A stretch of DNA of 64,000 bases from a virus (Duplodnaviria > Caudoviricetes), in the IMG/VR virus record IMGVR_UViG_3300016744_000001, one strand, 5' to 3'. Made by a program: the position numbers and the translations under genes. Position 1 is the stretch's first letter, and each line of letters begins with the position of its first letter. Of the stretch, positions 41,520-52,193 are shown piece after piece. The notes below the pieces were generated by a model that saw nothing but the letters and a program-made list of their open reading frames with translations, was not told the DNA's origin and did no database searches.

Positions 41520-41789
41520 ATGGCCGTTAATGAAACGATTACTCAAACTACCTTTACTGGGTTCAGTCGATTCCCTAAGTTTGTGCACATTCAAGAACTG
41601 AAAACTGCGCTTACTCAACTGGATGCGTACAGTAAGAATGTTGTTAACTGCAACTGTGCCCCAAGTAACTGTTGCCAGGCAAACTGTTCTTATACCTGTC
41701 AATCCTGTCAAAGTTGTCAATGGTGTCAAACTTGTCAAAGTCAATGCCAAAATTGTTGGAACTGCAATTGTGGTGATGACGGATCTTAG
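41520..41789 (+). CDS. Cys-rich protein A (candidate radical SAM substrate)
   Basis: AAGGAG RBS; 14 Cys in the C-terminal half, (CQx)n repeats, NCNC at both ends of the core. Confidence 0.85.
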   Translation: MAVNETITQTTFTGFSRFPKFVHIQELKTALTQLDAYSKNVVNCNCAPSNCCQANCSYTCQSCQSCQWCQTCQSQCQNCWNCNCGDDGS

Positions 41790-41797
41790 GAGGTAGC

Positions 41798-42112
41798 ATG
41801 TCTTTACCAACCAGACAAGAAATCATTGACATGACTACTCAATTTGAGCAAATCCGTGACAGTGTAACCTACAAATCTGGTCAAACAAAACCAGTAATCG
41901 ACAAGCATACTCACACCGTAACTTTCCCGGAGAGGGTGACACTTACTTCGCTGCAAGCTGGGGTGAAACAACTTGAGAGTTATTACTCTCAAAACTGCAA
42001 TTGTTTAACCAACCCACAATGTTGCCAGACTTGTCAAATCTGTCAGGTGTGTCAAAGCTGTCAAAGTTGTGAAAGTGGTTGGTGTGAAAATAACTGTTTG
42101 CAGTGCAACTGA
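41798..42112 (+). CDS. Cys-rich protein B (paralogue of A)
   Basis: AGGAGG RBS; 12 Cys; QLESYYSQNCNC..CCQTCQICQVCQSCQSC. Confidence 0.85.
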   Translation: MSLPTRQEIIDMTTQFEQIRDSVTYKSGQTKPVIDKHTHTVTFPERVTLTSLQAGVKQLESYYSQNCNCLTNPQCCQTCQICQVCQSCQSCESGWCENNCLQCN

Positions 42113-42124
42113 TAGGAGACCATC

Positions 42125-42964
42125 ATGCTCAAGATATACTCCCTGGCTGTTGATCAGACAAGAAAGTTCTCAATTGATCTGGTGGACAACCAACTTTCTG
42201 TAAAAGTCATTGATGACTCAACCAACGGGATCGTCAATGAGTGCTCTCCCACCTTGATCGAGTCTTACCACTCTTATGGACTGTTTAGTGGCAACTTCGT
42301 TGAACGAGTGCCCAGCACAATTTTCAAAGAGTTGGATCAGGTGATCCATGCCGGATCACTCAAACTCGTGAACTATCTCCGCCTTGGTTATGGCCCACGG
42401 GAATCGTTCATGGGGATTGCTGACTTTTGGTCACACAACCCACTTGGTCAAGTTGACACTGGTTTGTACACCGACCAAGAAAAGGACATTGTGATCACTG
42501 TCTTTGGTGGTTGGAATCCGGATAGTATCGTCAATAGCTCGATCCCATACGAAGTCCGCACCCCACTGCCGGCAGACACATTTCACTCGCATAAATCCAA
42601 TGCCCGTTGGACGCTTTGGGATCGATATGCGGTCGGAATCAATGGCTTGGAATACTGGGCAGACCAAAACGGTATTCGAAAAGACACCAATGCAGAAACA
42701 ATTGCAATTCCAACAAAGGAATGTTTGGAGTTTAATCTCCAGAAGTATACCTCTGATTGGTCAACAAAGCTTGAACGCCCAGTCGACTGTAATGAACTAA
42801 CGCTTGAAACCACTTGTGGTCTTTTGCGCACAACCAGAGTCCCGTTGGTTGAAGGCAAAGCAAAATTCCACCTGTACCCGTTTGGTCATCTTGGTGAATT
42901 CAAAATCAAGGTTGGCTGGCGATGGTACCCTGTTTGGGATGAATACAAGTTCACGTTAATTTAA
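42125..42964 (+). CDS. Accessory protein of cassette 1 (C-terminal beta domain shared with 48481..49482)
   Basis: LETTCGLLRTTRVPLVEGKAKF...G...IKVGWRW. Confidence 0.75.
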   Translation: MLKIYSLAVDQTRKFSIDLVDNQLSVKVIDDSTNGIVNECSPTLIESYHSYGLFSGNFVERVPSTIFKELDQVIHAGSLKLVNYLRLGYGPRESFMGIADFWSHNPLGQVDTGLYTDQEKDIVITVFGGWNPDSIVNSSIPYEVRTPLPADTFHSHKSNARWTLWDRYAVGINGLEYWADQNGIRKDTNAETIAIPTKECLEFNLQKYTSDWSTKLERPVDCNELTLETTCGLLRTTRVPLVEGKAKFHLYPFGHLGEFKIKVGWRWYPVWDEYKFTLI

Positions 42965-43018: not shown

Positions 43019-44098
43019 ATGAACAATCTGCTTTCTATCCCTGCTGTCAGAACTATCTTTCTGATGCTTGGACCTAAATGTAATCTGTCTTGCAAGTATT
43101 GCTTGCAGTCTTTAGATACGACTCCGGTTAAGCTCAACCCCGACATTTTTCCATTCATTGAAAAGATTGCTGAAGCAAACCCAGAAACACCAGTACACCT
43201 CCAATTTTTTGGAGGTGAGCCTTTGCTTCACTGGGATTCGGTAATCAAGGAAACACTAGATCATTTCGAAGGTGTTGAGAACATCCAGTTTTCCATGATC
43301 ACCAACGGTGTTGGTCTTACTCAAGAAATCGTGGATACCTGCAACCAGCGAAATGTTAGCATCTGTGTGTCGTGGGATGGGCCAAACACACAAGAACTTC
43401 GTGGGTTTGATGTTCTGAATTCTGAAAAACACCGAATATTGTTGTTGCAAGTTATTCGGCTTAGTTTGTCAGCTGTCGTCACATCCGAGTCATATCCAGT
43501 AGAGATCATCGATGCTGCGATGCCATTCGTTCTTGATTACCATGCTGCTACTGGAAATCACTGCTCGATCAACTTTGACACCATCTTTCAATCGAAAGAC
43601 CCCGAGCTTGAAAAGCTTGATCTCTCAAGATTGTACAACGATAATCAGATCTTGTGTGCCGAACTGAAAAAACGGTTGCTGAACCAAGAACACAACCCGT
43701 ACTACGCTCATCACGCTGATCAGATCTTTGGGATGTTGACCAAGTCAATTAAAAACGACACCGACTTCTTGTACAGTACCTGTGCATGTGAAAATGGGTA
43801 TGCTGTGCTCAACCTTGGAATTGACGGTACACTGTATCAGTGTCACAATGTGGCCACCGTACTCGGGAATATTTACTCCGGTTACCTTCCGTATATGAAG
43901 GCGGTGATCCGCAATGATCCTACGAAAACTAGGGTGGTTGAGACTTGTCAGCATTGCCCAGTTGTTGCAATGTGCAAAGGGGGATGCATGCTTGTTCCAG
44001 CTGACCAAATCAACGGTAATTACTGTGGAATCAAACGAGCGATGTTTCTTCCGTTCATTGAGCTTCTATTGTCCTTTGACAAGGATACTCCAAAATGA
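43019..44098 (+). CDS. Radical SAM/SPASM maturase 1a
   Basis: CNLSCKYC, FFGGEPLL, ITNG, SWDG; SPASM C...GTLYQCH...CQHCPVVAMCKGGC...YC. Confidence 0.92.
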   Translation: MNNLLSIPAVRTIFLMLGPKCNLSCKYCLQSLDTTPVKLNPDIFPFIEKIAEANPETPVHLQFFGGEPLLHWDSVIKETLDHFEGVENIQFSMITNGVGLTQEIVDTCNQRNVSICVSWDGPNTQELRGFDVLNSEKHRILLLQVIRLSLSAVVTSESYPVEIIDAAMPFVLDYHAATGNHCSINFDTIFQSKDPELEKLDLSRLYNDNQILCAELKKRLLNQEHNPYYAHHADQIFGMLTKSIKNDTDFLYSTCACENGYAVLNLGIDGTLYQCHNVATVLGNIYSGYLPYMKAVIRNDPTKTRVVETCQHCPVVAMCKGGCMLVPADQINGNYCGIKRAMFLPFIELLLSFDKDTPK

Positions 44099-45057
44099 AA
44101 TCACTCACCATCCATTTAGGTAGCCAGTGCAACGCCGCTTGTGAGTACTGTCACTGTGAAAAAAATGGTCATCTTGAACCCGATGCTGAAGCATTAGCCG
44201 TCAGGATTAATGAACTTCCAGAACATTCCAGAGTGAAGTTTCTTGGTGGTGAACCATTGGTCTACTGGGACACAATCGAATACCTCCAAAAGAAGTTTCG
44301 TTTGAAGTATCAGTGGTCAGTTGGTACAAATGGTATCCTTCTTGACAAGTATCTTGACAAGTTGAAACGATTTCAAACTCAGATTTGTATCTCTTATGAC
44401 GGCAGCAGCTCTCTGCGAAAAATGCCGGTCAACTGGGATATCCTTTACCAGCTATCTGAATTGTGGTTGAGTTATACGGTGATGAACACCAATTGTGATG
44501 TGCTCAAAGAGATGACATTCATCGATGAGATCTCTAAAGAATACGTCACTCCTATCTGGTGCATTCCTCACTTCATGCATGCCTTGGTCCAAGAGCATCA
44601 ACCCTTTGTCATTACCGATCAGCAGCTTGATCAACTGATCGCTGATTGTCAGCTGGCAATTGACTACTTTGTTGATGCCGCCCCAACAAGTGTTCCAATG
44701 TCCAAGTACTTTGGAATCTATTTGTGGATTGCATCAAAAGTTCACCAGAACAATTTTTCCTTTGGTGAGACGACTTGCTTTAACAACAATCTGATCAAGA
44801 TCAACAATCAAGGGCAGTTGGTTTCTTGTTTGTACGATCAAAGCTTACACCTTTCTGACATCAATTGGTTTGATGTTCAAAAAGCTGAACTCCGCGAGCA
44901 TCAACCAAAATGTCAAACCTGTTTGGTGTATCGCTACTGTGGAGCAGCTTGTTACAAAAGCAAGTTCTCGGATCATGAATGTCAATTTTACAAAACCATG
45001 ATTCCATGGTTCGTGAGGAAGTATGGCCATAGACCACTTATTCGTCTTTGCCGATAG
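44095..45057 (+). CDS. Radical SAM/SPASM maturase 1b
   Basis: CNAACEYC, FLGGEPL, TNG, SYDG; CQTCLVYRYCGAAC...EC; ATGA overlap with 1a. Confidence 0.92.
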   Translation: MKSLTIHLGSQCNAACEYCHCEKNGHLEPDAEALAVRINELPEHSRVKFLGGEPLVYWDTIEYLQKKFRLKYQWSVGTNGILLDKYLDKLKRFQTQICISYDGSSSLRKMPVNWDILYQLSELWLSYTVMNTNCDVLKEMTFIDEISKEYVTPIWCIPHFMHALVQEHQPFVITDQQLDQLIADCQLAIDYFVDAAPTSVPMSKYFGIYLWIASKVHQNNFSFGETTCFNNNLIKINNQGQLVSCLYDQSLHLSDINWFDVQKAELREHQPKCQTCLVYRYCGAACYKSKFSDHECQFYKTMIPWFVRKYGHRPLIRLCR

Positions 45058-45768: not shown

Positions 45769-46530
45769 ATGGCTGATATGACTGCAACAATCCCTGTCAA
45801 ACCAACAGTGTTTCCGGAACCATTTGCCAATTCTGGCGATACCACACAGCTCCCTCAGACAACCACCACTCCCGGCAAAGCATCGTTCGATGCTGGTTTC
45901 CCTGAGGAATGCTCCAAACCTCTGGCGGATGGTGGTCTCCCTCCCAGTCGTATTGACTTCAACTCAATTTTCAAATTGATCACGGAGTGGTTGCATTACT
46001 TCCAGTCTGGTGGCCAGGTCACCTACAATCAGGACCTGAACTATATCACTCCTGCTCTGGTGTTCTACAACGGCACAGGATACGAATGCACTGCCGACAA
46101 TGGTCCTGCAGTTGCTGGCATCGGTATCAAAATTCCTGGTGCTGTGGGCAGTGAAACTTTCTGGAAGCCTGCTTCAGGTGAGCTGAACATCAACCACTTT
46201 GGCAACAATGCGAACTCATACCTTTTGACAGGTTACTACTATATTGAGGACGCATACGCCACGCTGAACTTCCCAGTCATCGGTTCTGGTGGGTTCTTGA
46301 CCGTGTCACGTCGTGACAACAATCTGGATCAGGCATTCGTACTGAGGACAGACGCAACCAAACTGTATCGCCGCAATTCGACAGACGGTGGTACCACTTG
46401 GTCAACTTGGACAAAGGTCGTCCACACGACTGACATTCGTGGCGACGCCTACTGCCAGCGTTTCATCACCATGTCTGATCCAGACCATGCGATCGGTAAT
46501 GACAACGACCTGTGGATTGTGTACCGGTAA
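45769..46530 (+). CDS. Tail fibre protein (prophage-myovirus-type N-terminus, knob-like C-terminus)
   Basis: PEPFANSGD, GKASFDAGFP..CSKPLADGGLPP...DFN N-terminus; TGYY....NFP....G.L.V....Q.......Y.R.....WSTW. Confidence 0.8.
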   Translation: MADMTATIPVKPTVFPEPFANSGDTTQLPQTTTTPGKASFDAGFPEECSKPLADGGLPPSRIDFNSIFKLITEWLHYFQSGGQVTYNQDLNYITPALVFYNGTGYECTADNGPAVAGIGIKIPGAVGSETFWKPASGELNINHFGNNANSYLLTGYYYIEDAYATLNFPVIGSGGFLTVSRRDNNLDQAFVLRTDATKLYRRNSTDGGTTWSTWTKVVHTTDIRGDAYCQRFITMSDPDHAIGNDNDLWIVYR

Positions 46531-46553: not shown

Positions 46554-47612
46554 ATGACAGACTGCGTACTTTACTGGAATGGTTCTGGTGGCAAAGTTGT
46601 CTCACAGGGTATCCTGTTTGAGATCAGCACCAAACCTGACCTGGGTTTCGAGTACGAAACCCTGAGCTACGAACCATCCATGAACTTTGCCCACTACACG
46701 TTGGCAACCAAGGATGAAAACAACCTCAGCACCATCCTGAAAGTTGATCTTTCAGAAGCTGAACTCGTCAAGGTTCAGAATTTCTGCAATGTCTTCATTG
46801 ATACTGCAGACTACGAAGTGGCCGCCTACAACACCGATCGAGTGTTCGTTGGTGTGATCATGAAGTCCTTGGCGATTGAAAAGAACCTGAAGTACTCAAT
46901 CACCGAGCGGCCGCCCATGCCGATGGCGAAGTTCAACGAAACCACCGGCAAATGGGAACCCATCTTTGTGGCCTTCAAAGAAGATGGTTTTCCGCTGTTC
47001 AACGTCACCAAACTGTCAGACGACATGGTGATGTTCTTCACTGAAACCGAATGGAAGGCACTGCCCACTCAGCCTTCTTACCGGTACTCACTGGATTTTG
47101 CGACATTGACTTGGATGGACAAACGTGATCTTGTCCGTGTCAAGAATGATGCCCTCATGACACTGCGGGTGTACTACGAACATCAGGACATTCGTGCGAA
47201 TGCTGGTTTCCGCACACCCAAGGAAATGATCCAGTGGAACATCCAGTACAATGAAGCCAAGGCGTTTACCGCCGATTCCAAGGTCAGCACTCCTTTCCTT
47301 GACGGCTTCCTGTCCAAGAATCCTCAGAGCACCAAAGAAGAACTGTGCGCTAAGATTCTTGAAGACTACACTGACGAAGCCCTGTTTGTGGCCGGCGCCG
47401 ATCATGGTGAGATGTACAACTACGTCTACCGGATCAAATCTGCCACCACCAATGTGGCAGTTGACGCCATCGTTGACGAGGTCAATGCCAAACTGCAGAA
47501 GTACAAAGTGGTCAACTACAACCAGGCGTATCCTTCTGCTCCGGCCAAAGAAGGCGAAGAAACTCTTGTAGTTGTCGGAGGTACCATCAACCATGGCGTC
47601 GGCAGTCTATAA
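46554..47612 (+). CDS. Tail-fibre assembly/chaperone-like protein
   Basis: P.P....FNETTGKW and EMIQWNIQYNEAKAF..D....TPFL......KEELCAKIL motifs typical of fibre-associated chaperones. Confidence 0.6.
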   Translation: MTDCVLYWNGSGGKVVSQGILFEISTKPDLGFEYETLSYEPSMNFAHYTLATKDENNLSTILKVDLSEAELVKVQNFCNVFIDTADYEVAAYNTDRVFVGVIMKSLAIEKNLKYSITERPPMPMAKFNETTGKWEPIFVAFKEDGFPLFNVTKLSDDMVMFFTETEWKALPTQPSYRYSLDFATLTWMDKRDLVRVKNDALMTLRVYYEHQDIRANAGFRTPKEMIQWNIQYNEAKAFTADSKVSTPFLDGFLSKNPQSTKEELCAKILEDYTDEALFVAGADHGEMYNYVYRIKSATTNVAVDAIVDEVNAKLQKYKVVNYNQAYPSAPAKEGEETLVVVGGTINHGVGSL

Positions 47613-47940
47613 AGTACAGGTGCGGGCCCAAGGTGCTTATCGTGGGTGTGTGCCTTTTGTGAAGGTTGCTGGTAAATACATCAATCCCAAAGCTATTTAC
47701 GTGAAAGTGAATGGTCTTTGGCGCGCAGCTTATGACAACTTTTACTGGTCGTACTACTGGATGACTGGTAACTGGTCTGGTTGTGCATGCGTCGGCAACT
47801 GCAGTAGCCGAGCAGTTTGGTGCAATTACTATCCGGAAATGCTCACCATGCCTGACAGCTATTGCTCGACGTCTGGTGACAAGCCTGCCACTGTTCAGTG
47901 GTGCAATTGTAATTGTGCGTGTGCCTGCTGTTGTGACTGA
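47593..47940 (+). CDS. Cys-rich protein C with TSP1-like segment and CNCNCACACCCD tail
   Basis: GGAGG RBS before ATG 47593; YVKVNGLWR fibre-tip-like motif; 13 Cys. Confidence 0.8.
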   Translation: MASAVYKVQVRAQGAYRGCVPFVKVAGKYINPKAIYVKVNGLWRAAYDNFYWSYYWMTGNWSGCACVGNCSSRAVWCNYYPEMLTMPDSYCSTSGDKPATVQWCNCNCACACCCD

Positions 47941-47989
47941 GGTTGCGACTAATTAGCAATTCAATTGCCAGTAAATAACAGACCTTTAT

Positions 47990-48023
47990 ACAGAGTACCC
48001 ACCTTTTAAGGTGGGTACTCTGT
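47990..48023 (+). terminator. Intergenic hairpin
   Basis: ACAGAGTACCCACCTT / AAGGTGGGTACTCTGT 16-bp stem. Confidence 0.65.
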
Positions 48024-48086
48024 CAATGATTAATCTTGTTATCTATAAAGATGGTACCAATCTAAAACAATTTCATGGAGTGCAAC

Positions 48087-48488
48087 ATGAGTAACGAAGA
48101 TACCAAATCTGAGGCAGAACGTTTTTCTCTTCCCAGTCAGTTTGTGATGGAAGAGGATACTGAACAGTATCGTCTCAAAACCGATAAAGTGTACACCTAT
48201 CATCGTGATGGTGAACTGGTGATCCAAATCGACTTCAGTGACTTTGCCATCAACAAAGACGACATCGACCGCCTGGGTGAAGAAGCCGTAATCAACCAAA
48301 TCCAGCAGGATGCGCTGGTGTTGGCGATGAAGCTGACTGGTGGGCTGAAACCAGGAGATGTTGAAAAACTGAACAATGAAGAAGTACGGGTTCTTACCGA
48401 AACTGAGATCGAAGACGCCACTGCGTTCATTGCCAGTCATCAGCAGTTCATGAGCGACCCCCAACAAACGGAGACCCCCAATGGGTAA
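48087..48488 (+). CDS. Acidic accessory protein of cassette 2
   Basis: GGAG RBS; D/E-rich; overlaps the start of 48481. Confidence 0.7.
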   Translation: MSNEDTKSEAERFSLPSQFVMEEDTEQYRLKTDKVYTYHRDGELVIQIDFSDFAINKDDIDRLGEEAVINQIQQDALVLAMKLTGGLKPGDVEKLNNEEVRVLTETEIEDATAFIASHQQFMSDPQQTETPNG

Positions 48489-49482
48489 ACCAACCTTGTT
48501 TATCATCCGGAAAGAGATGGACATCCTTCGTCCGTTTGTTATTCGAGTTACCCGTGAGGAAGACCTTCTTCAGGTAGAGTACCTTTACCGCACCATGGTC
48601 AAAGGTGAGCAGAAGGACTTCTTGGTTCTCGGGTATCGGCTTACTCGTGAGTTCCTTGAGAAGCGCAATGACTGGAAAGACAACACCCAATTTGGCATGC
48701 ATCTCAAGGACTATGACATCTCTTACATGCACAGCTGTGTCAGGATCATCCAACAGTTCGTTGACTCTGGATTGTCGTATGCCGATGTCTGCGCTGCAGT
48801 CAGTGCTCACATGCCCAGATTCAACACAATCAACCGCAACGGATACCTGATCAACATCAGTGCCGCCAGCTACATCGGTAAAGTTTCTTCCGTGGAAGCT
48901 CATGTGTTGATCCCTGCTTACCGGGTGATCAACTGGGTACAGAAACTGAAGAGCACCAAGTTCACGGAATGCTGTGTCAACTTGGCAGCTGACCCTGCTT
49001 GCACCGTAGAAGTGATCACTGGTGATCGGACGCAGGACATCTGCAACAGCAGTGAGATCTACAAAGATCTCATCCACAAGGATGAAGCGATCAAACAGCA
49101 GGTTTGGCGTCCCAAACTCAAACTCACCCAGCAGCCAAAACGGTATCCGATCGTCAACAACTTCCCCAGTCGCACTCACTCACTGTTGCGCACGGATCTG
49201 GTTGTCGAAGATTTCACCGGCGTGGTCTTTCCTGATGAATCAGTCACATTTGACGTGCAATTGGTTCGGGAGTGGTACGGTGATGAAATCCACTCCCCGG
49301 CTGAAATCTATCTGGAATGCGTCAATGGTTACTTGCCGAAGACACGTATCCGGTTGGATGAAAACGGTCATGGTACTTTCCGGTTCATTTCCCTTGGTCT
49401 TGAGAAGGGTGACATCATGAAGGTCAAAGCTGGTTTCAGGTTCATGACAAACTCTGCTGAAGCGGATATCGCAATCATCTAA
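48481..49482 (+). CDS. Accessory protein of cassette 2 (C-terminal domain shared with 42125..42964)
   Basis: LECVNGYLPKTRIRLDENGHGTF...G...MKVKAGFRF. Confidence 0.75.
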   Translation: MGKPTLFIIRKEMDILRPFVIRVTREEDLLQVEYLYRTMVKGEQKDFLVLGYRLTREFLEKRNDWKDNTQFGMHLKDYDISYMHSCVRIIQQFVDSGLSYADVCAAVSAHMPRFNTINRNGYLINISAASYIGKVSSVEAHVLIPAYRVINWVQKLKSTKFTECCVNLAADPACTVEVITGDRTQDICNSSEIYKDLIHKDEAIKQQVWRPKLKLTQQPKRYPIVNNFPSRTHSLLRTDLVVEDFTGVVFPDESVTFDVQLVREWYGDEIHSPAEIYLECVNGYLPKTRIRLDENGHGTFRFISLGLEKGDIMKVKAGFRFMTNSAEADIAII

Positions 49483-49580: not shown

Positions 49581-50819
49581 ATGTTAAGTCTAGTCTTCAA
49601 TGACAAATCGCTTGAGAAATTCAAGATCGACTTCAATCCGTACACCATGAAGTTTGGTCAGGATGTCCAAGATATCAAACCGCTGATGACTGTGCAAACA
49701 AAGATCCACAGCAAGTCACCAAAAGTGCTCAAAATCATGCTTGGTGACGCTTGCAACTTTCGCTGTAAGTATTGCCGTCAAGATCATCATGGTCGGAAAG
49801 ATTCTTTCAATCCGGCACGATTAGCAGCATTCATGCAGATGCTCACGAACAACCTGTCACTGCATCAGCTTGAACGTGTGGAGTACTGGGGCGGTGAACC
49901 CCTCTTGTATTGGGATGAAATCCGGTACTTGATGGACAGAATCGAGACACACGTAAAACGGCCCGTAACGCACCATATAACGACGAATGGCAGTTTGCTG
50001 ACCAATGACATCGTTTCAGACATAAAGTCGCTTAAATACCTCTTTAAGCTCTCTCACGATGGTCCTGGGCAAAGTCTTCGCACGGCAGATCCATTGAAGC
50101 TGCATGAAAGCAAGATCATGGATCTGTACACCCACATGAAGACGGCTGAAGGAAGCAAGTTTCACATCAACTCGGTGCTGACCAAATTGTGTCCGTCACC
50201 TTTCACGATTGTGGATTTCTTCCGAAAGAGGTTTGACAACGATGTCTCGATCATGAAGATCGAACCAGTCATCCCGTACAATGATGATGCGTTGTCTTAC
50301 GCGATCAATCCAGCAGACATGCCGAAGTTCTCATTCCAGATCGCCAACGACATCATCCGTGGGGATATCGTCAGAAGTGTTGTGGAATACCAACAGCTGT
50401 GGGATGCTTTCGTTTTGATGGAAGCTGCCCCTGACTACATCTACAACATGACTGAAGCCAAATGTCATGGGTCACAGTTGATGACTATCTGCACTGATCT
50501 CGATGGTAACCTCACCCCTTGTCAGGTGTATGACAACTACACTCCTGATCAAGTCATCGGCCATCTGACCAAGCTGGATGACATCAAGGAAGAACTTCCT
50601 TATGCTCCGATCAATCGCGCCGGTCGTTGCACCAACTGCCCTGTGATCTCACTGTGCCGTGGGGTATGCCCACACATTGCTCCTGGTCAGCATGCTGACA
50701 CCAACTGTCTGATGCGGTACAACACGTACCTGGGTATCCTTACTGCGTTCCTGTTTTTCAAGACTCAGAAATTCTTGATTCAAGTTAACGGGGACTATTA
50801 CCACAACCAACAAAGGTAG
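49581..50819 (+). CDS. Radical SAM/SPASM maturase 2a
   Basis: CNFRCKYC, YWGGEPLLYW, TTNGSL, LSHDGPGQ; CTNCPVISLCRGVC...C. Confidence 0.92.
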   Translation: MLSLVFNDKSLEKFKIDFNPYTMKFGQDVQDIKPLMTVQTKIHSKSPKVLKIMLGDACNFRCKYCRQDHHGRKDSFNPARLAAFMQMLTNNLSLHQLERVEYWGGEPLLYWDEIRYLMDRIETHVKRPVTHHITTNGSLLTNDIVSDIKSLKYLFKLSHDGPGQSLRTADPLKLHESKIMDLYTHMKTAEGSKFHINSVLTKLCPSPFTIVDFFRKRFDNDVSIMKIEPVIPYNDDALSYAINPADMPKFSFQIANDIIRGDIVRSVVEYQQLWDAFVLMEAAPDYIYNMTEAKCHGSQLMTICTDLDGNLTPCQVYDNYTPDQVIGHLTKLDDIKEELPYAPINRAGRCTNCPVISLCRGVCPHIAPGQHADTNCLMRYNTYLGILTAFLFFKTQKFLIQVNGDYYHNQQR

Positions 50820-50824
50820 TTCAC

Positions 50825-52156
50825 ATGCAACTGATTACCTTAAAGAATGGTACTCAGCTTAAGTTCGATCCAGTCAGCGTTAAGTTCTTCCAGATGGACG
50901 GTACTCCGATCACGGTCAGGAATGATATCAATGCTGATCAAGATTGTTCCAAAGTGAGTAACCAACTGAACATGCACATGCATGCGAACACAAGATTCGA
51001 CAACCCGAAAAACTTGCGTATCGTTCTTGGGCACGCCTGCAACTTCAAGTGCAAATACTGCAGTCAGAGTCACTCACCTCTTGACCTGCCCCCGGCCAAA
51101 CAAGTTAGCAAGTTCATGATGGACTTGTTCAAAACGACTAATCTTTCCCAGTTGAAGGTTATCCAATTCTGGGGTGGTGAACCACTGCTGTACTGGCCAA
51201 CCATCTGCTTCTTTATGGATGCATTCCGGGAGATCAATCCCAACATTGGGTTCTCTATCGTGACCAATGGTAGTTTGATCACCAAGCGCATGGGCGATGT
51301 CATTCTGAACGACGACCAGTTTGGTTTCATCCTTTCTCATGACGGTCCGGGTCAACATCTCCGTGGGATTGATCCATTGGCTCTGGGTTCTCGTACCAGA
51401 GACATCCTGTTACAGTTGGCAAAGGAAAAGGTGCCCAACCAACACCGGAAGTACTTGAATGAAGGAAGGAACTTTGCAGTCAATCCGGTGATCACCTCAG
51501 CTGTGGGTTCACTCACATCCTTGGTAGAATGGTACGACAAAGCCTTTGAAGGTTGCGAAGTACCAATCGCTGAATCAATTCCTGTGATCCCAATCCAAGA
51601 CGACACGGCACAATACGCGCTGCATCATGACGATCTACCCAAGTATACAGCGATGATCTACCACGATCTACTGAAGCTTGGGTTGCATCGTTTTGACAAC
51701 TACAAGATGCTGTATGATCTCTTCCTTCAGAAGTGGTCACTTCCGCAATTCTTGGTGAACCCCAAAAAAGCTTTGTGCTTCACCACCGATCCATACATGC
51801 TGACATTGGACCTGAATGGTAACATCTTACCATGCCAGACTTTTGCAGCTTCGGATCATCTTGGTAATGGGGAACCAGCATCTTACAGTAACCTGCTGGA
51901 TTTTGGTGACAAGACTGATCCCACCACAACCGGACCAGACATCAAAATGCCAACAGTTCATGGTTATGGTAGCCGAGGTAGTAAGTGTAGTAACTGCCCA
52001 GTAGTTTCTTTCTGCATGGGTGGTTGTCCTTACCTTGTTGGTGCACAACACGACATTGACTGCCGTGTCAAGTACCATCATTTCCTTGGACTACTGTTTA
52101 CCTTTGTCACAATGGCCTTTGGTGAAAAGGTCCTCAAAATCGAAACCCTCGATTGA
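50825..52156 (+). CDS. Radical SAM/SPASM maturase 2b
   Basis: CNFKCKYC, FWGGEPLLYW, VTNGSL, LSHDGPGQ; CSNCPVVSFCMGGC...C. Confidence 0.92.
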   Translation: MQLITLKNGTQLKFDPVSVKFFQMDGTPITVRNDINADQDCSKVSNQLNMHMHANTRFDNPKNLRIVLGHACNFKCKYCSQSHSPLDLPPAKQVSKFMMDLFKTTNLSQLKVIQFWGGEPLLYWPTICFFMDAFREINPNIGFSIVTNGSLITKRMGDVILNDDQFGFILSHDGPGQHLRGIDPLALGSRTRDILLQLAKEKVPNQHRKYLNEGRNFAVNPVITSAVGSLTSLVEWYDKAFEGCEVPIAESIPVIPIQDDTAQYALHHDDLPKYTAMIYHDLLKLGLHRFDNYKMLYDLFLQKWSLPQFLVNPKKALCFTTDPYMLTLDLNGNILPCQTFAASDHLGNGEPASYSNLLDFGDKTDPTTTGPDIKMPTVHGYGSRGSKCSNCPVVSFCMGGCPYLVGAQHDIDCRVKYHHFLGLLFTFVTMAFGEKVLKIETLD

Positions 52157-52161
52157 TGACT

Positions 52162-52189
52162 ATCCCTGCTAGGCTATCCTAGCAGGGAT
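52162..52189. terminator. Hairpin between convergent genes
   Basis: ATCCCTGCTAGG / CCTAGCAGGGAT. Confidence 0.65.
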
Positions 52190-52193
52190 GTCT

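Follow-up and report, generated by a model that had tools for sequence, protein, structure and literature searches.

Does a tailed phage encode a true thrombospondin type 1 repeat (TSP1 module, TSR), and is the cysteine run at the end of this module modified by the radical S-adenosylmethionine (rSAM) enzymes encoded nearby? This question is raised by the open reading frame (ORF) at 47593..47940 (+ strand, stop codon included) in a 64,000-nucleotide stretch of IMG/VR virus record IMGVR_UViG_3300016744_000001 (Duplodnaviria; Caudoviricetes), from an uncultured giant phage. The whole stretch is referred to below as the window, and the 115-aa product of the ORF is designated P0001. TSP1 repeats are textbook disulfide-held adhesion modules of animals and apicomplexans. 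As judged from its sequence, the module in P0001 is a true but eroded and divergent TSP1 homologue of the ADAMTS type. The reading favoured here, with moderate confidence, is that P0001 is a small tail-fibre-associated subunit, in which beta-hairpins and the eroded TSP1 are followed by a Cys run cross-linked by the rSAM enzymes 2a and 2b.

TSP1 Homology of P0001

P0001 is composed of three regions. Residues 6-46 (47608..47730, +) form three beta-hairpin repeats of the V-K-V-x-G-x-W-[KR] type, as indicated by PHROG matches, by the relatives and by the AlphaFold model, which has three strand pairs in this region. The divergent TSP1 module (ADAMTS-type TSR) occupies residues 53-108 (47749..47916, +) according to hidden Markov model (HMM), BLASTP and fold matches, and the Cys run C-N-C-N-C-A-C-A-C-C-C-D occupies residues 104-115 (47902..47937, +) according to the alignment of the subfamily. 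The run shares residues with the last TSR strand, and its first Cys is Cys-5 of TSP1. All strings quoted in the first-pass annotation of this DNA are in place: YVKVNGLWR at residues 36-44, YYWMTGNWSGCAC...SSRAVWC...PDSYC...KPATVQWC at residues 54-104 and CNCNCACACCCD, with 7 Cys in 12 residues, at residues 104-115.

An exhaustive phmmer search of 1.8 billion representatives with P0001 gave 67 matches. Residues 53-110 match the tandem repeats of ADAMTS-type proteins, such as P0007 (E 2e-13 to P0001, 14 matched stretches), which contains reprolysin, disintegrin and 15 TSP1_ADAMTS repeats. Residues 8-113 match about 45 uncultured-phage-type proteins of 100-300 aa. PF19030 is recognized in the phmmer matches with E-values down to 1e-160, including the phage-type proteins P0013 (4.9e-13) and P0009 (2.4e-35), and P0001 matches P0013 in BLASTP at 2e-17. 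Within the subfamily to which P0001 itself belongs (named poly-Cys below), P0076 (26.7 bits) and P0079 (25.9 bits) exceed the PF19030 cut-off of 23.8 bits; P0005, the nearest relative (56% identity), scores 19.7 bits. P0001 is thus joined to sequences above the Pfam threshold by an unbroken chain of homologues. This chain counts against the alternative that P0001 is an orphan small phage protein, whose TSP1 likeness is due to convergent Cys/Trp-rich composition, an idea with which the lack of a direct Pfam match to P0001 would agree.

A custom TSP1 HMM was built from 57 repeats of multi-repeat proteins strongly matching PF19030. Residues 45-115 of P0001 score 29.9 bits with this model, whereas 2000 composition-preserving shuffles of the same residues have a mean of -12.1 (standard deviation 4.1, maximum 6.6); none of them reaches the real score, which argues against convergent composition. 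The HMM alignment of residues 53-107 (27.5 bits, E 1.5e-10) aligns every hallmark position. W56-M-T-G59-N-W61-S-G-C64 and R73-A-V-W-C77 align to the consensus, and the conserved W, G, W, C, R-x-V-x-C, D-x-x-C and K-P fit the model, a further point against convergence. C64 (C1), C77 (C3), C91 (C4) and C104 (C5) are in the TSP1 register. C66 (C2) is displaced by a 2-residue deletion, and C6 is not assignable within the Cys run.

The AlphaFold model of P0001 (predicted local distance difference test, pLDDT, 75.7) has a predicted three-stranded layered TSR fold. Its top Foldseek match is the TSR of THSD7A (8oxr_A), with an E-value of only 0.049, which is the other point in favour of convergence. 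In an exhaustive structural alignment against 48,161 chains, 8oxr_A is again the best match (Z 7.0, root-mean-square deviation 2.4 A over 59 residues, 24% identity), and the next matches are nearly all TSRs (semaphorin-5A, MIC2, TSP-1, properdin, CCN3, BAI1, F-spondin). This dominance of TSRs likewise counts against convergence, which is considered very improbable. Collagenase ColH provided the sole PDB sequence rows for P0001 (E 0.06-0.2), which were judged to be chance. The ADAMTS-type module proposed in the first-pass annotation is therefore supported via transitive homology, the custom HMM and predicted-fold matches, with no direct Pfam match; similarity of fold is present, and the ORF is conserved in the related cassettes.

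Compared with TSP1 of the ADAMTS type (PF19030; THSD7A d1-d2, PDB 8OXR), the module of P0001 has the same length of ~55 residues and the same W-x-x-G-x-W-S-x-C, R-x-V-x-C, D-x-x-C and K-P-x(5)-C-N motifs. It differs in a shorter C1-C2 loop, no C-G-x-G-x-Q, the additional C70, which canonical TSP1 lacks, and Cys-6, which is buried in the Cys run. Only one Arg is available for the TSR stacking layer. Moreover, P0001 is made in the phage-infected bacterial cytoplasm, to which the eukaryotic secretory pathway and TSR glycosylation are inapplicable.

Canonical Relatives in Phage Tail Modules

A canonical TSP1-bearing family clearly exists in the tail modules of uncultured phages. Its members have three V-K-V-x-G-x-W-[KR] repeats, a canonical TSP1 (W-x-x-G-x-W-G-x-C-S-x-x-C-G-G-G-x-Q-x-R-x-V-x-C ... 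D-x-x-C ... K-P-x-T-S-Q-x-C-N-T-Q-x-C) and a hypervariable C-terminal domain, which is likely the receptor-binding part. The genes sit in tail modules of the T7-like (nozzle, gp14) and lambda-J-like kinds; 15 IMG/VR contigs, of which several have lengths of 200-300 kb, were found to carry them. The family (P0013, P0015, P0016 and others) shares with P0001 the N-terminal repeats, the position of TSP1 and an adjacent gene for an assembly-like protein of ~350 aa; identity over residues 8-113 is 34-43%. Unlike P0001, it keeps six or seven TSR cysteines and a hypervariable C-terminal domain of 70-150 aa.

In the poly-Cys subfamily this domain is replaced by the Cys run, at which the proteins end, and the cut-down form is always accompanied by the rSAM pair. 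The variable, putatively receptor-binding domain is thus absent from the subfamily of P0001. The adhesin or receptor-binding tip assumed for P0001 in the first-pass annotation is a candidate function only and is not supported.

The canonical TSP1_ADAMTS family is unnamed (IMG/VR loci L017-L034; L011:4444-5004; L013:10001-10543). Its C-terminal domain ends with Y-x-[VI]-C-R-x-P, and some contigs carry two or three canonical copies. A second TSP1-containing gene (182-185 aa) is present ~5 kb upstream in the same tail module at L005:4669-5217, L094:4790-5347 and L095:4758-5315; that of L005 matches PF19030 at 30.3 bits. The phages with this second gene are the smaller ones carrying the poly-Cys gene.

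In a tblastn search of 50,697 deposited phage genomes the TSP1 part was not found encoded, and a three-TSR query was likewise without a match. Deposited phages provided no close DNA or protein relatives of P0001, and the N-terminal repeats alone gave weak matches. Pattern scans for the poly-Cys subfamily in IMG/VR, JGI metagenome contigs and GTDB genomes yielded no confirmed relatives.

The Cysteine Run and the Radical SAM Pair

Homologues of P0001 were collected by word-indexed and profile searches and form 16 clusters (at 90% identity) with 37-96% identity to P0001. C-A-C-A-C-C is invariant in 15 of these 16 subfamily clusters and always C-terminal, despite many synonymous codon changes; the codons of the tail vary synonymously only. 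The cluster with a differing tail is P0079, whose tail sits at an AT-rich junction near the contig end. Here (L094:10340-11105) the Cys run stops after C-N-C-N-C and is followed by AT-rich, non-coding-looking sequence up to the contig end. This break is probably an assembly junction or insertion, and L094 is not scorable for rSAMs because the Cys run breaks into contig-end sequence. A terminal Asp after the run is usual in the subfamily and is absent in P0004, P0072-74, P0076 and P0077. In the AlphaFold model residues 108-115 of P0001 have pLDDT <50, and the Cys run is predicted to be flexible.

The rSAM pair is encoded 1.6 kb downstream of P0001. Enzyme 2a (412 aa; 49581..50819, +) has Radical_SAM, Fer4_12 and weak SPASM matches, and enzyme 2b (443 aa; 50825..52156, +) has Radical_SAM and SPASM (TIGR04085, 29.2 bits at a cut-off of 27) matches. 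Their mutual identity is ~30%. PapB is the best NCBIfam match of both (78.9 and 57.9 bits; E 4e-22 for 2a against the PapB family), and since these scores are far under the cut-off of 340, 2a and 2b are placed in a new branch. TIGR03906, which belongs to the QhpD/QhpC context, was also matched in the NCBIfam scan of the rSAMs.

Six poly-Cys loci had enough flanking sequence to be judged: the window and L001, L005, L095, L096 and L097, where identity to P0001 is 79%, 50%, 37%, 47% and 44%, respectively. Orthologues of both 2a and 2b are present in all six; in the loci other than the window the first gene of the pair is orthologous to 2a (42-53%) and the second to 2b (42-56%), as compared with only 22-26% identity between pair 2 and the rSAMs of cassette 1, another set of genes in the window. 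Jumbo, P2-like and other phage backbones carry these loci, and gene order differs, the pair being upstream of the poly-Cys gene in L097. In L096, from a P2-like myovirus, baseplate/fibre genes and the sheath gene enclose the cassette, and just one small gene intervenes before the pair. Among canonical TSP1 loci, one of 21 (L013) has any rSAM, and the other 20 have none within 10 kb. The difference (6/6 versus 1/21) corresponds to a Fisher p of 2.4e-5, although the six loci are one lineage and the counts are not independent. Coupling of the poly-Cys protein to rSAMs is therefore well supported genomically, and the link between the poly-Cys tail and pair 2 claimed in the first-pass annotation is supported by orthologous pairs co-inherited across varied phage types and gene orders.

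A general association of rSAMs with TSP1 was considered and rejected: none of the 18 IMG/VR canonical loci has rSAMs, and those of L013 follow a different fibre protein. The three rSAMs of L013 are unrelated to pair 2 (E about 1e-5). In this siphovirus-like locus (L013:3807-8259) the fibre-type protein has 258 aa, heptad-like repeats rich in His and a C-x-x-x-C-rich tail. Its gene precedes an accessory gene and the three rSAM genes, and the set represents a third kind of fibre/Cys-tail/rSAM cassette.

The Cys run could have another role. It could be a metal-thiolate site (metallothionein-like C-x-C) or an inter-chain disulfide knot bundling fibre subunits, while the rSAMs modify another cassette protein, namely the fibre, the assembly-like, the 137-aa or the 333-aa protein. 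Alternating C-x-C-x-C is a classic metal-thiolate pattern, and low pLDDT of the tail in a monomer is expected if its ordering needs metal or oligomerization. Five other proteins are co-conserved with the rSAM pair, and a PapA-like Cys-X3-Asp motif is absent from the tail.

However, it is the poly-Cys subfamily that the pair accompanies, not the assembly-like protein, which is likewise found beside rSAM-less canonical TSP1 genes, and L096 has the pair without the 333-aa protein. Near the pair, each poly-Cys locus has a single ORF reaching 7 or more Cys in 30 residues, namely that of the TSP1/poly-Cys protein, so that a second Cys-dense target is lacking. Finally, in 6/6 loci the Cys run is adjoined by SPASM rSAMs having Cys-thioether maturases as best matches. 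A metal-binding or disulfide-bonded run with the enzymes acting elsewhere is accordingly regarded as unlikely.

Tail-Fibre Setting and Proposed Function

The operon containing the P0001 gene is headed by a gene for a 253-aa tail-fibre protein (45769..46530, +; phrog_12796 'tail fiber protein', E 3.9e-15, and other tail-fibre PHROGs). At the equivalent position, weak Mtd_N matches were obtained in L005, L007 and L095 and a faint one in L094. The next gene encodes a tail-fibre-assembly-like protein of 352 aa (46554..47612, +), its length being counted from the ATG common to the homologues. It is always adjacent to TSP1 proteins: homologues with 27-38% identity adjoin the TSP1 genes in L005, L095, L096 and L097 and in the canonical L011 and L013. 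Atlas feature and shape searches led to tail-fibre-assembly clusters (Caudo_TAP, HI1402_helical, DUF4376), which are treated as leads only, and Foldseek with the model of this protein (pLDDT 84.9) gave no meaningful match in PDB.

Relatives of P0001 are located among baseplate, fibre and sheath genes. The fibre-type N-terminus reported in the first-pass annotation agrees with the weak PHROG matches of the hairpin repeats (phrog_21772, residues 9-45, E 6.9e-4), with 'minor tail protein' (phrog_6977) as a match in relatives, and with the position of the gene after the fibre and assembly-like genes. The PHROGs matched by the repeats of P0001 itself are of unknown function.

Alternatively, P0001 could be absent from the virion, either as a precursor of the RiPP type (a peptide made by ribosomes and modified after translation), with a modified and released C-terminal Cys peptide, or as an assembly factor acting only in fibre folding. 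Its small size is compatible with this, as are the C-terminal position of the modified-looking segment beside rSAM/SPASM genes, as in ranthipeptide clusters, and the chaperone-like neighbour. On the other hand, neither a protease nor an exporter is conserved across the six loci. Instead of a leader, the ~100 residues before the tail form folded domains of a structural type, with homology to phage tail proteins, and the gene is found inside tail-fibre operons of several phage types. A non-virion protein of either kind is improbable on these grounds.

In the favoured reading, that of a cross-linked tail-fibre-associated subunit, the three N-terminal hairpin repeats would attach P0001 to either the fibre or the assembly-like protein whose gene lies just upstream. 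TSP1 would have been inherited from the wider uncultured-phage family with three hairpins, TSP1 and a variable C-terminal domain, the place of the latter being taken by the invariant Cys run. Enzymes 2a and 2b would most likely act on the Cys tail, and perhaps also on the neighbouring TSR cysteines. The product would contain thioether cross-links of the ranthionine or sactionine type, within a chain or between fibre subunits. The outcome would be a redox-proof staple in place of the canonical TSR disulfides. Presence in the virion, the tail as the substrate, thioether chemistry and a role in adhesion are what we infer for P0001.

Several observations weigh against this reading. Pfam matches neither P0001 nor its residues 45-115 even at E <= 10 (the gathering score of PF19030 is 23.8 bits), and no TSP1 match to P0001 was obtained in NCBIfam or in the PDB sequence profile search. 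Two residues are missing between C1 and C2, C-G-x-G-x-Q is no longer present, and about half of the poly-Cys subfamily has lost Cys-2. The alignment used by AlphaFold is rich in canonical TSRs, and the fold is partly inherited from it and is not independent of the sequence evidence. The co-occurrence of the poly-Cys protein with the rSAMs is a conserved linkage and not six independent events. The repeated Cys-X3-Asp/Glu of the PapA type is absent from the tail of P0001, which has a single terminal Asp, and several subfamily members end with C-C-C-C or C-A-C-C, without Asp. Both 2a and 2b are far under every NCBIfam equivalog cut-off, and an RRE domain was not detected in them with Pfam and NCBIfam. 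Complex prediction for 2a, 2b and P0001 gave a score of 0.00; controls were not run, and this result weighs neither way.

A more far-reaching version of the cross-linking reading is tentative. According to it, phages of anoxic habitats could have rebuilt an animal-type TSR for stapling by a dedicated rSAM pair, with thioethers from the Cys run to the core and/or between chains. It is speculation that the loss of Cys-2 in half of the subfamily reflects replacement of the canonical Cys2-Cys6 disulfide.

Comparison with Known Systems

QhpD modifies the QhpC subunit of quinohemoprotein amine dehydrogenase with Cys thioethers. CrpC of Methanococcus voltae installs ranthionines on CrpA, which is a Cys-rich protein and not a peptide (PMC13692751). 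In both CrpC/CrpA and QhpD/QhpC, as proposed here, the target of a SPASM rSAM is not a released peptide but a small subunit or Cys-rich protein with a gene nearby. An anaerobic setting would be a further common feature. These systems differ from the window in being cellular and having a single rSAM; the substrate proposed for the window belongs to a virus tail and carries a TSR domain. CrpA and QhpC showed no sequence kinship with P0001.

PapB of the PapA/PapB freyrasin ranthipeptide system forms thioethers from Cys to Asp/Glu and is also able to join Cys to the residue at the C-terminus (PMC12373016). In P0001 the Cys run reaches the C-terminus, where Asp is the usual last residue in its subfamily. 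In contrast to that system, there are two paralogous enzymes instead of one, and the candidate substrate is a folded 115-aa protein instead of a leader-core peptide. Cys-X3-Asp repeats, a protease and an exporter are not present here.

Cassette 1 of the same phage includes Cys/Gln-repeat proteins (41520-42112) and an rSAM pair (43019-45057). Its layout is that of cassette 2, to which P0001 belongs: a fibre gene, one or more small Cys-rich proteins, an accessory protein and two SPASM rSAMs. It differs in the period-3 C-Q-x repeats of its substrates as opposed to the TSR and C-x-C run of P0001, and the substrates of the two cassettes are unrelated, in agreement with the first-pass annotation, which had noted only the CNC motif as common to P0001 and the cassette-1 peptides. 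P0001 would thus represent a second, unrelated substrate family on the same DNA, with its own enzyme pair, beside cassette 1. In the accessory protein of cassette 1 (42125-42964), the C-terminal ~55 residues match the C-terminus of L095:11399-12565 (32%, E 6.6e-5).

The Gene and Its Neighbourhood

The P0001 gene, annotated as TSP1-like/poly-Cys on the basis of its ORF, translation, homologues and substitution pattern, extends from ATG at 47593 to TGA at 47938-47940 on the + strand; the opposite strand contains only short ORFs. The start is ATG 47593 and not TTG 47572, because all homologues begin with M-A-S-A-V-Y-K. It lies inside the final 20 nt of the preceding gene (20-nt overlap), and a Shine-Dalgarno sequence GGAGGT (47577..47582, +) is located within the 3' end of that gene, 10 nt ahead of the ATG. 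Boxes of the GGAGG type are found at the equivalent place in L001, L004 and L008. Translational coupling of P0001 to the upstream gene is likely.

Comparison with five homologues gave synonymous differences (pS) of 0.79-0.90, a range in which synonymous sites are saturated, and nonsynonymous differences (pN) of 0.10-0.35. By this codon-level evidence the gene is real and under purifying selection. Selenocysteine incorporation or readthrough at the TGA was rejected, as the stop codons of homologues vary (TGA, TAG or TAA) and the 3' sequence is unconserved; the in-frame G-C-D-TAA after the TGA (47938-47952) is a coincidence.

A hairpin with a perfect 14-bp stem and a 6-nt loop (47990..48023, +) is located 50 nt past the P0001 stop. 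It has no T tract, for which reason the terminator scan did not call it. Hairpins also follow the gene in L001 and L004 and are unrelated to that of the window. The rSAM operon is closed by a terminator-like hairpin with a 13-bp stem and 7 GC pairs (52161..52190, +; terminator scan).

The conserved core of the cassette comprises the assembly-like protein, the TSP1/poly-Cys protein, a small acidic protein and rSAMs a and b. The small acidic protein (about 115-137 aa, 137 aa in the window; 48075..48488, +; BLASTP to L097 and L005) is conserved in each of the six poly-Cys loci and could serve the rSAM pair as a partner that presents the substrate. Pfam, NCBIfam and Atlas gave it no family assignment; its alignment with L001, L005, L095, L096 and L097 includes the motif D-F-S-D-L ... 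L-K-x-G-D ... L-T-E. The 333-aa accessory protein (48481..49482, +) has ~33% identical homologues in L005, L095 and L097 and is also present in L001, that is, in 5/6 poly-Cys loci, being absent in L096. It has no family match in Pfam or NCBIfam.

The related loci contain additional genes. In L001 a 307-aa ORF with a C-x-C-x-C-G motif (L001:2204-3127) is inserted between the TSP1 and small acidic genes; it is absent from the window, has no match in Pfam and looks like a mobile, homing-endonuclease-like insertion. Genes for MadL- and MadM-like membrane proteins (L095:12585-13708) are located between the accessory gene and the rSAM pair of L095, with no counterpart in the window. In L097 the fibre module is bordered by a group II intron reverse transcriptase/maturase (L097:137-1927), and a third, short rSAM gene (296 aa; L097:10367-11257) lies downstream of the cassette.

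Significance

The TSR domain is known, as is the cross-linking of a Cys-rich protein by rSAM enzymes, and it is the phage tail-fibre setting that is unreported. Full-text literature searches revealed no description of a TSP1 repeat in a phage tail protein, and those combining phage tail fibres with thrombospondin or radical SAM gave nothing pertinent. If 2a and 2b cross-link P0001, RiPP-type post-translational chemistry would extend to virus particles, and a natural case of thioethers replacing disulfides in a known fold would be provided. If the stapled TSR is real, it would be the first enzymatically cross-linked, reduction-proof adhesion module of a virion. TSRs would then form a sizeable, hitherto undescribed class of phage tail domains, which would reopen the origin of this 'eukaryotic' module.

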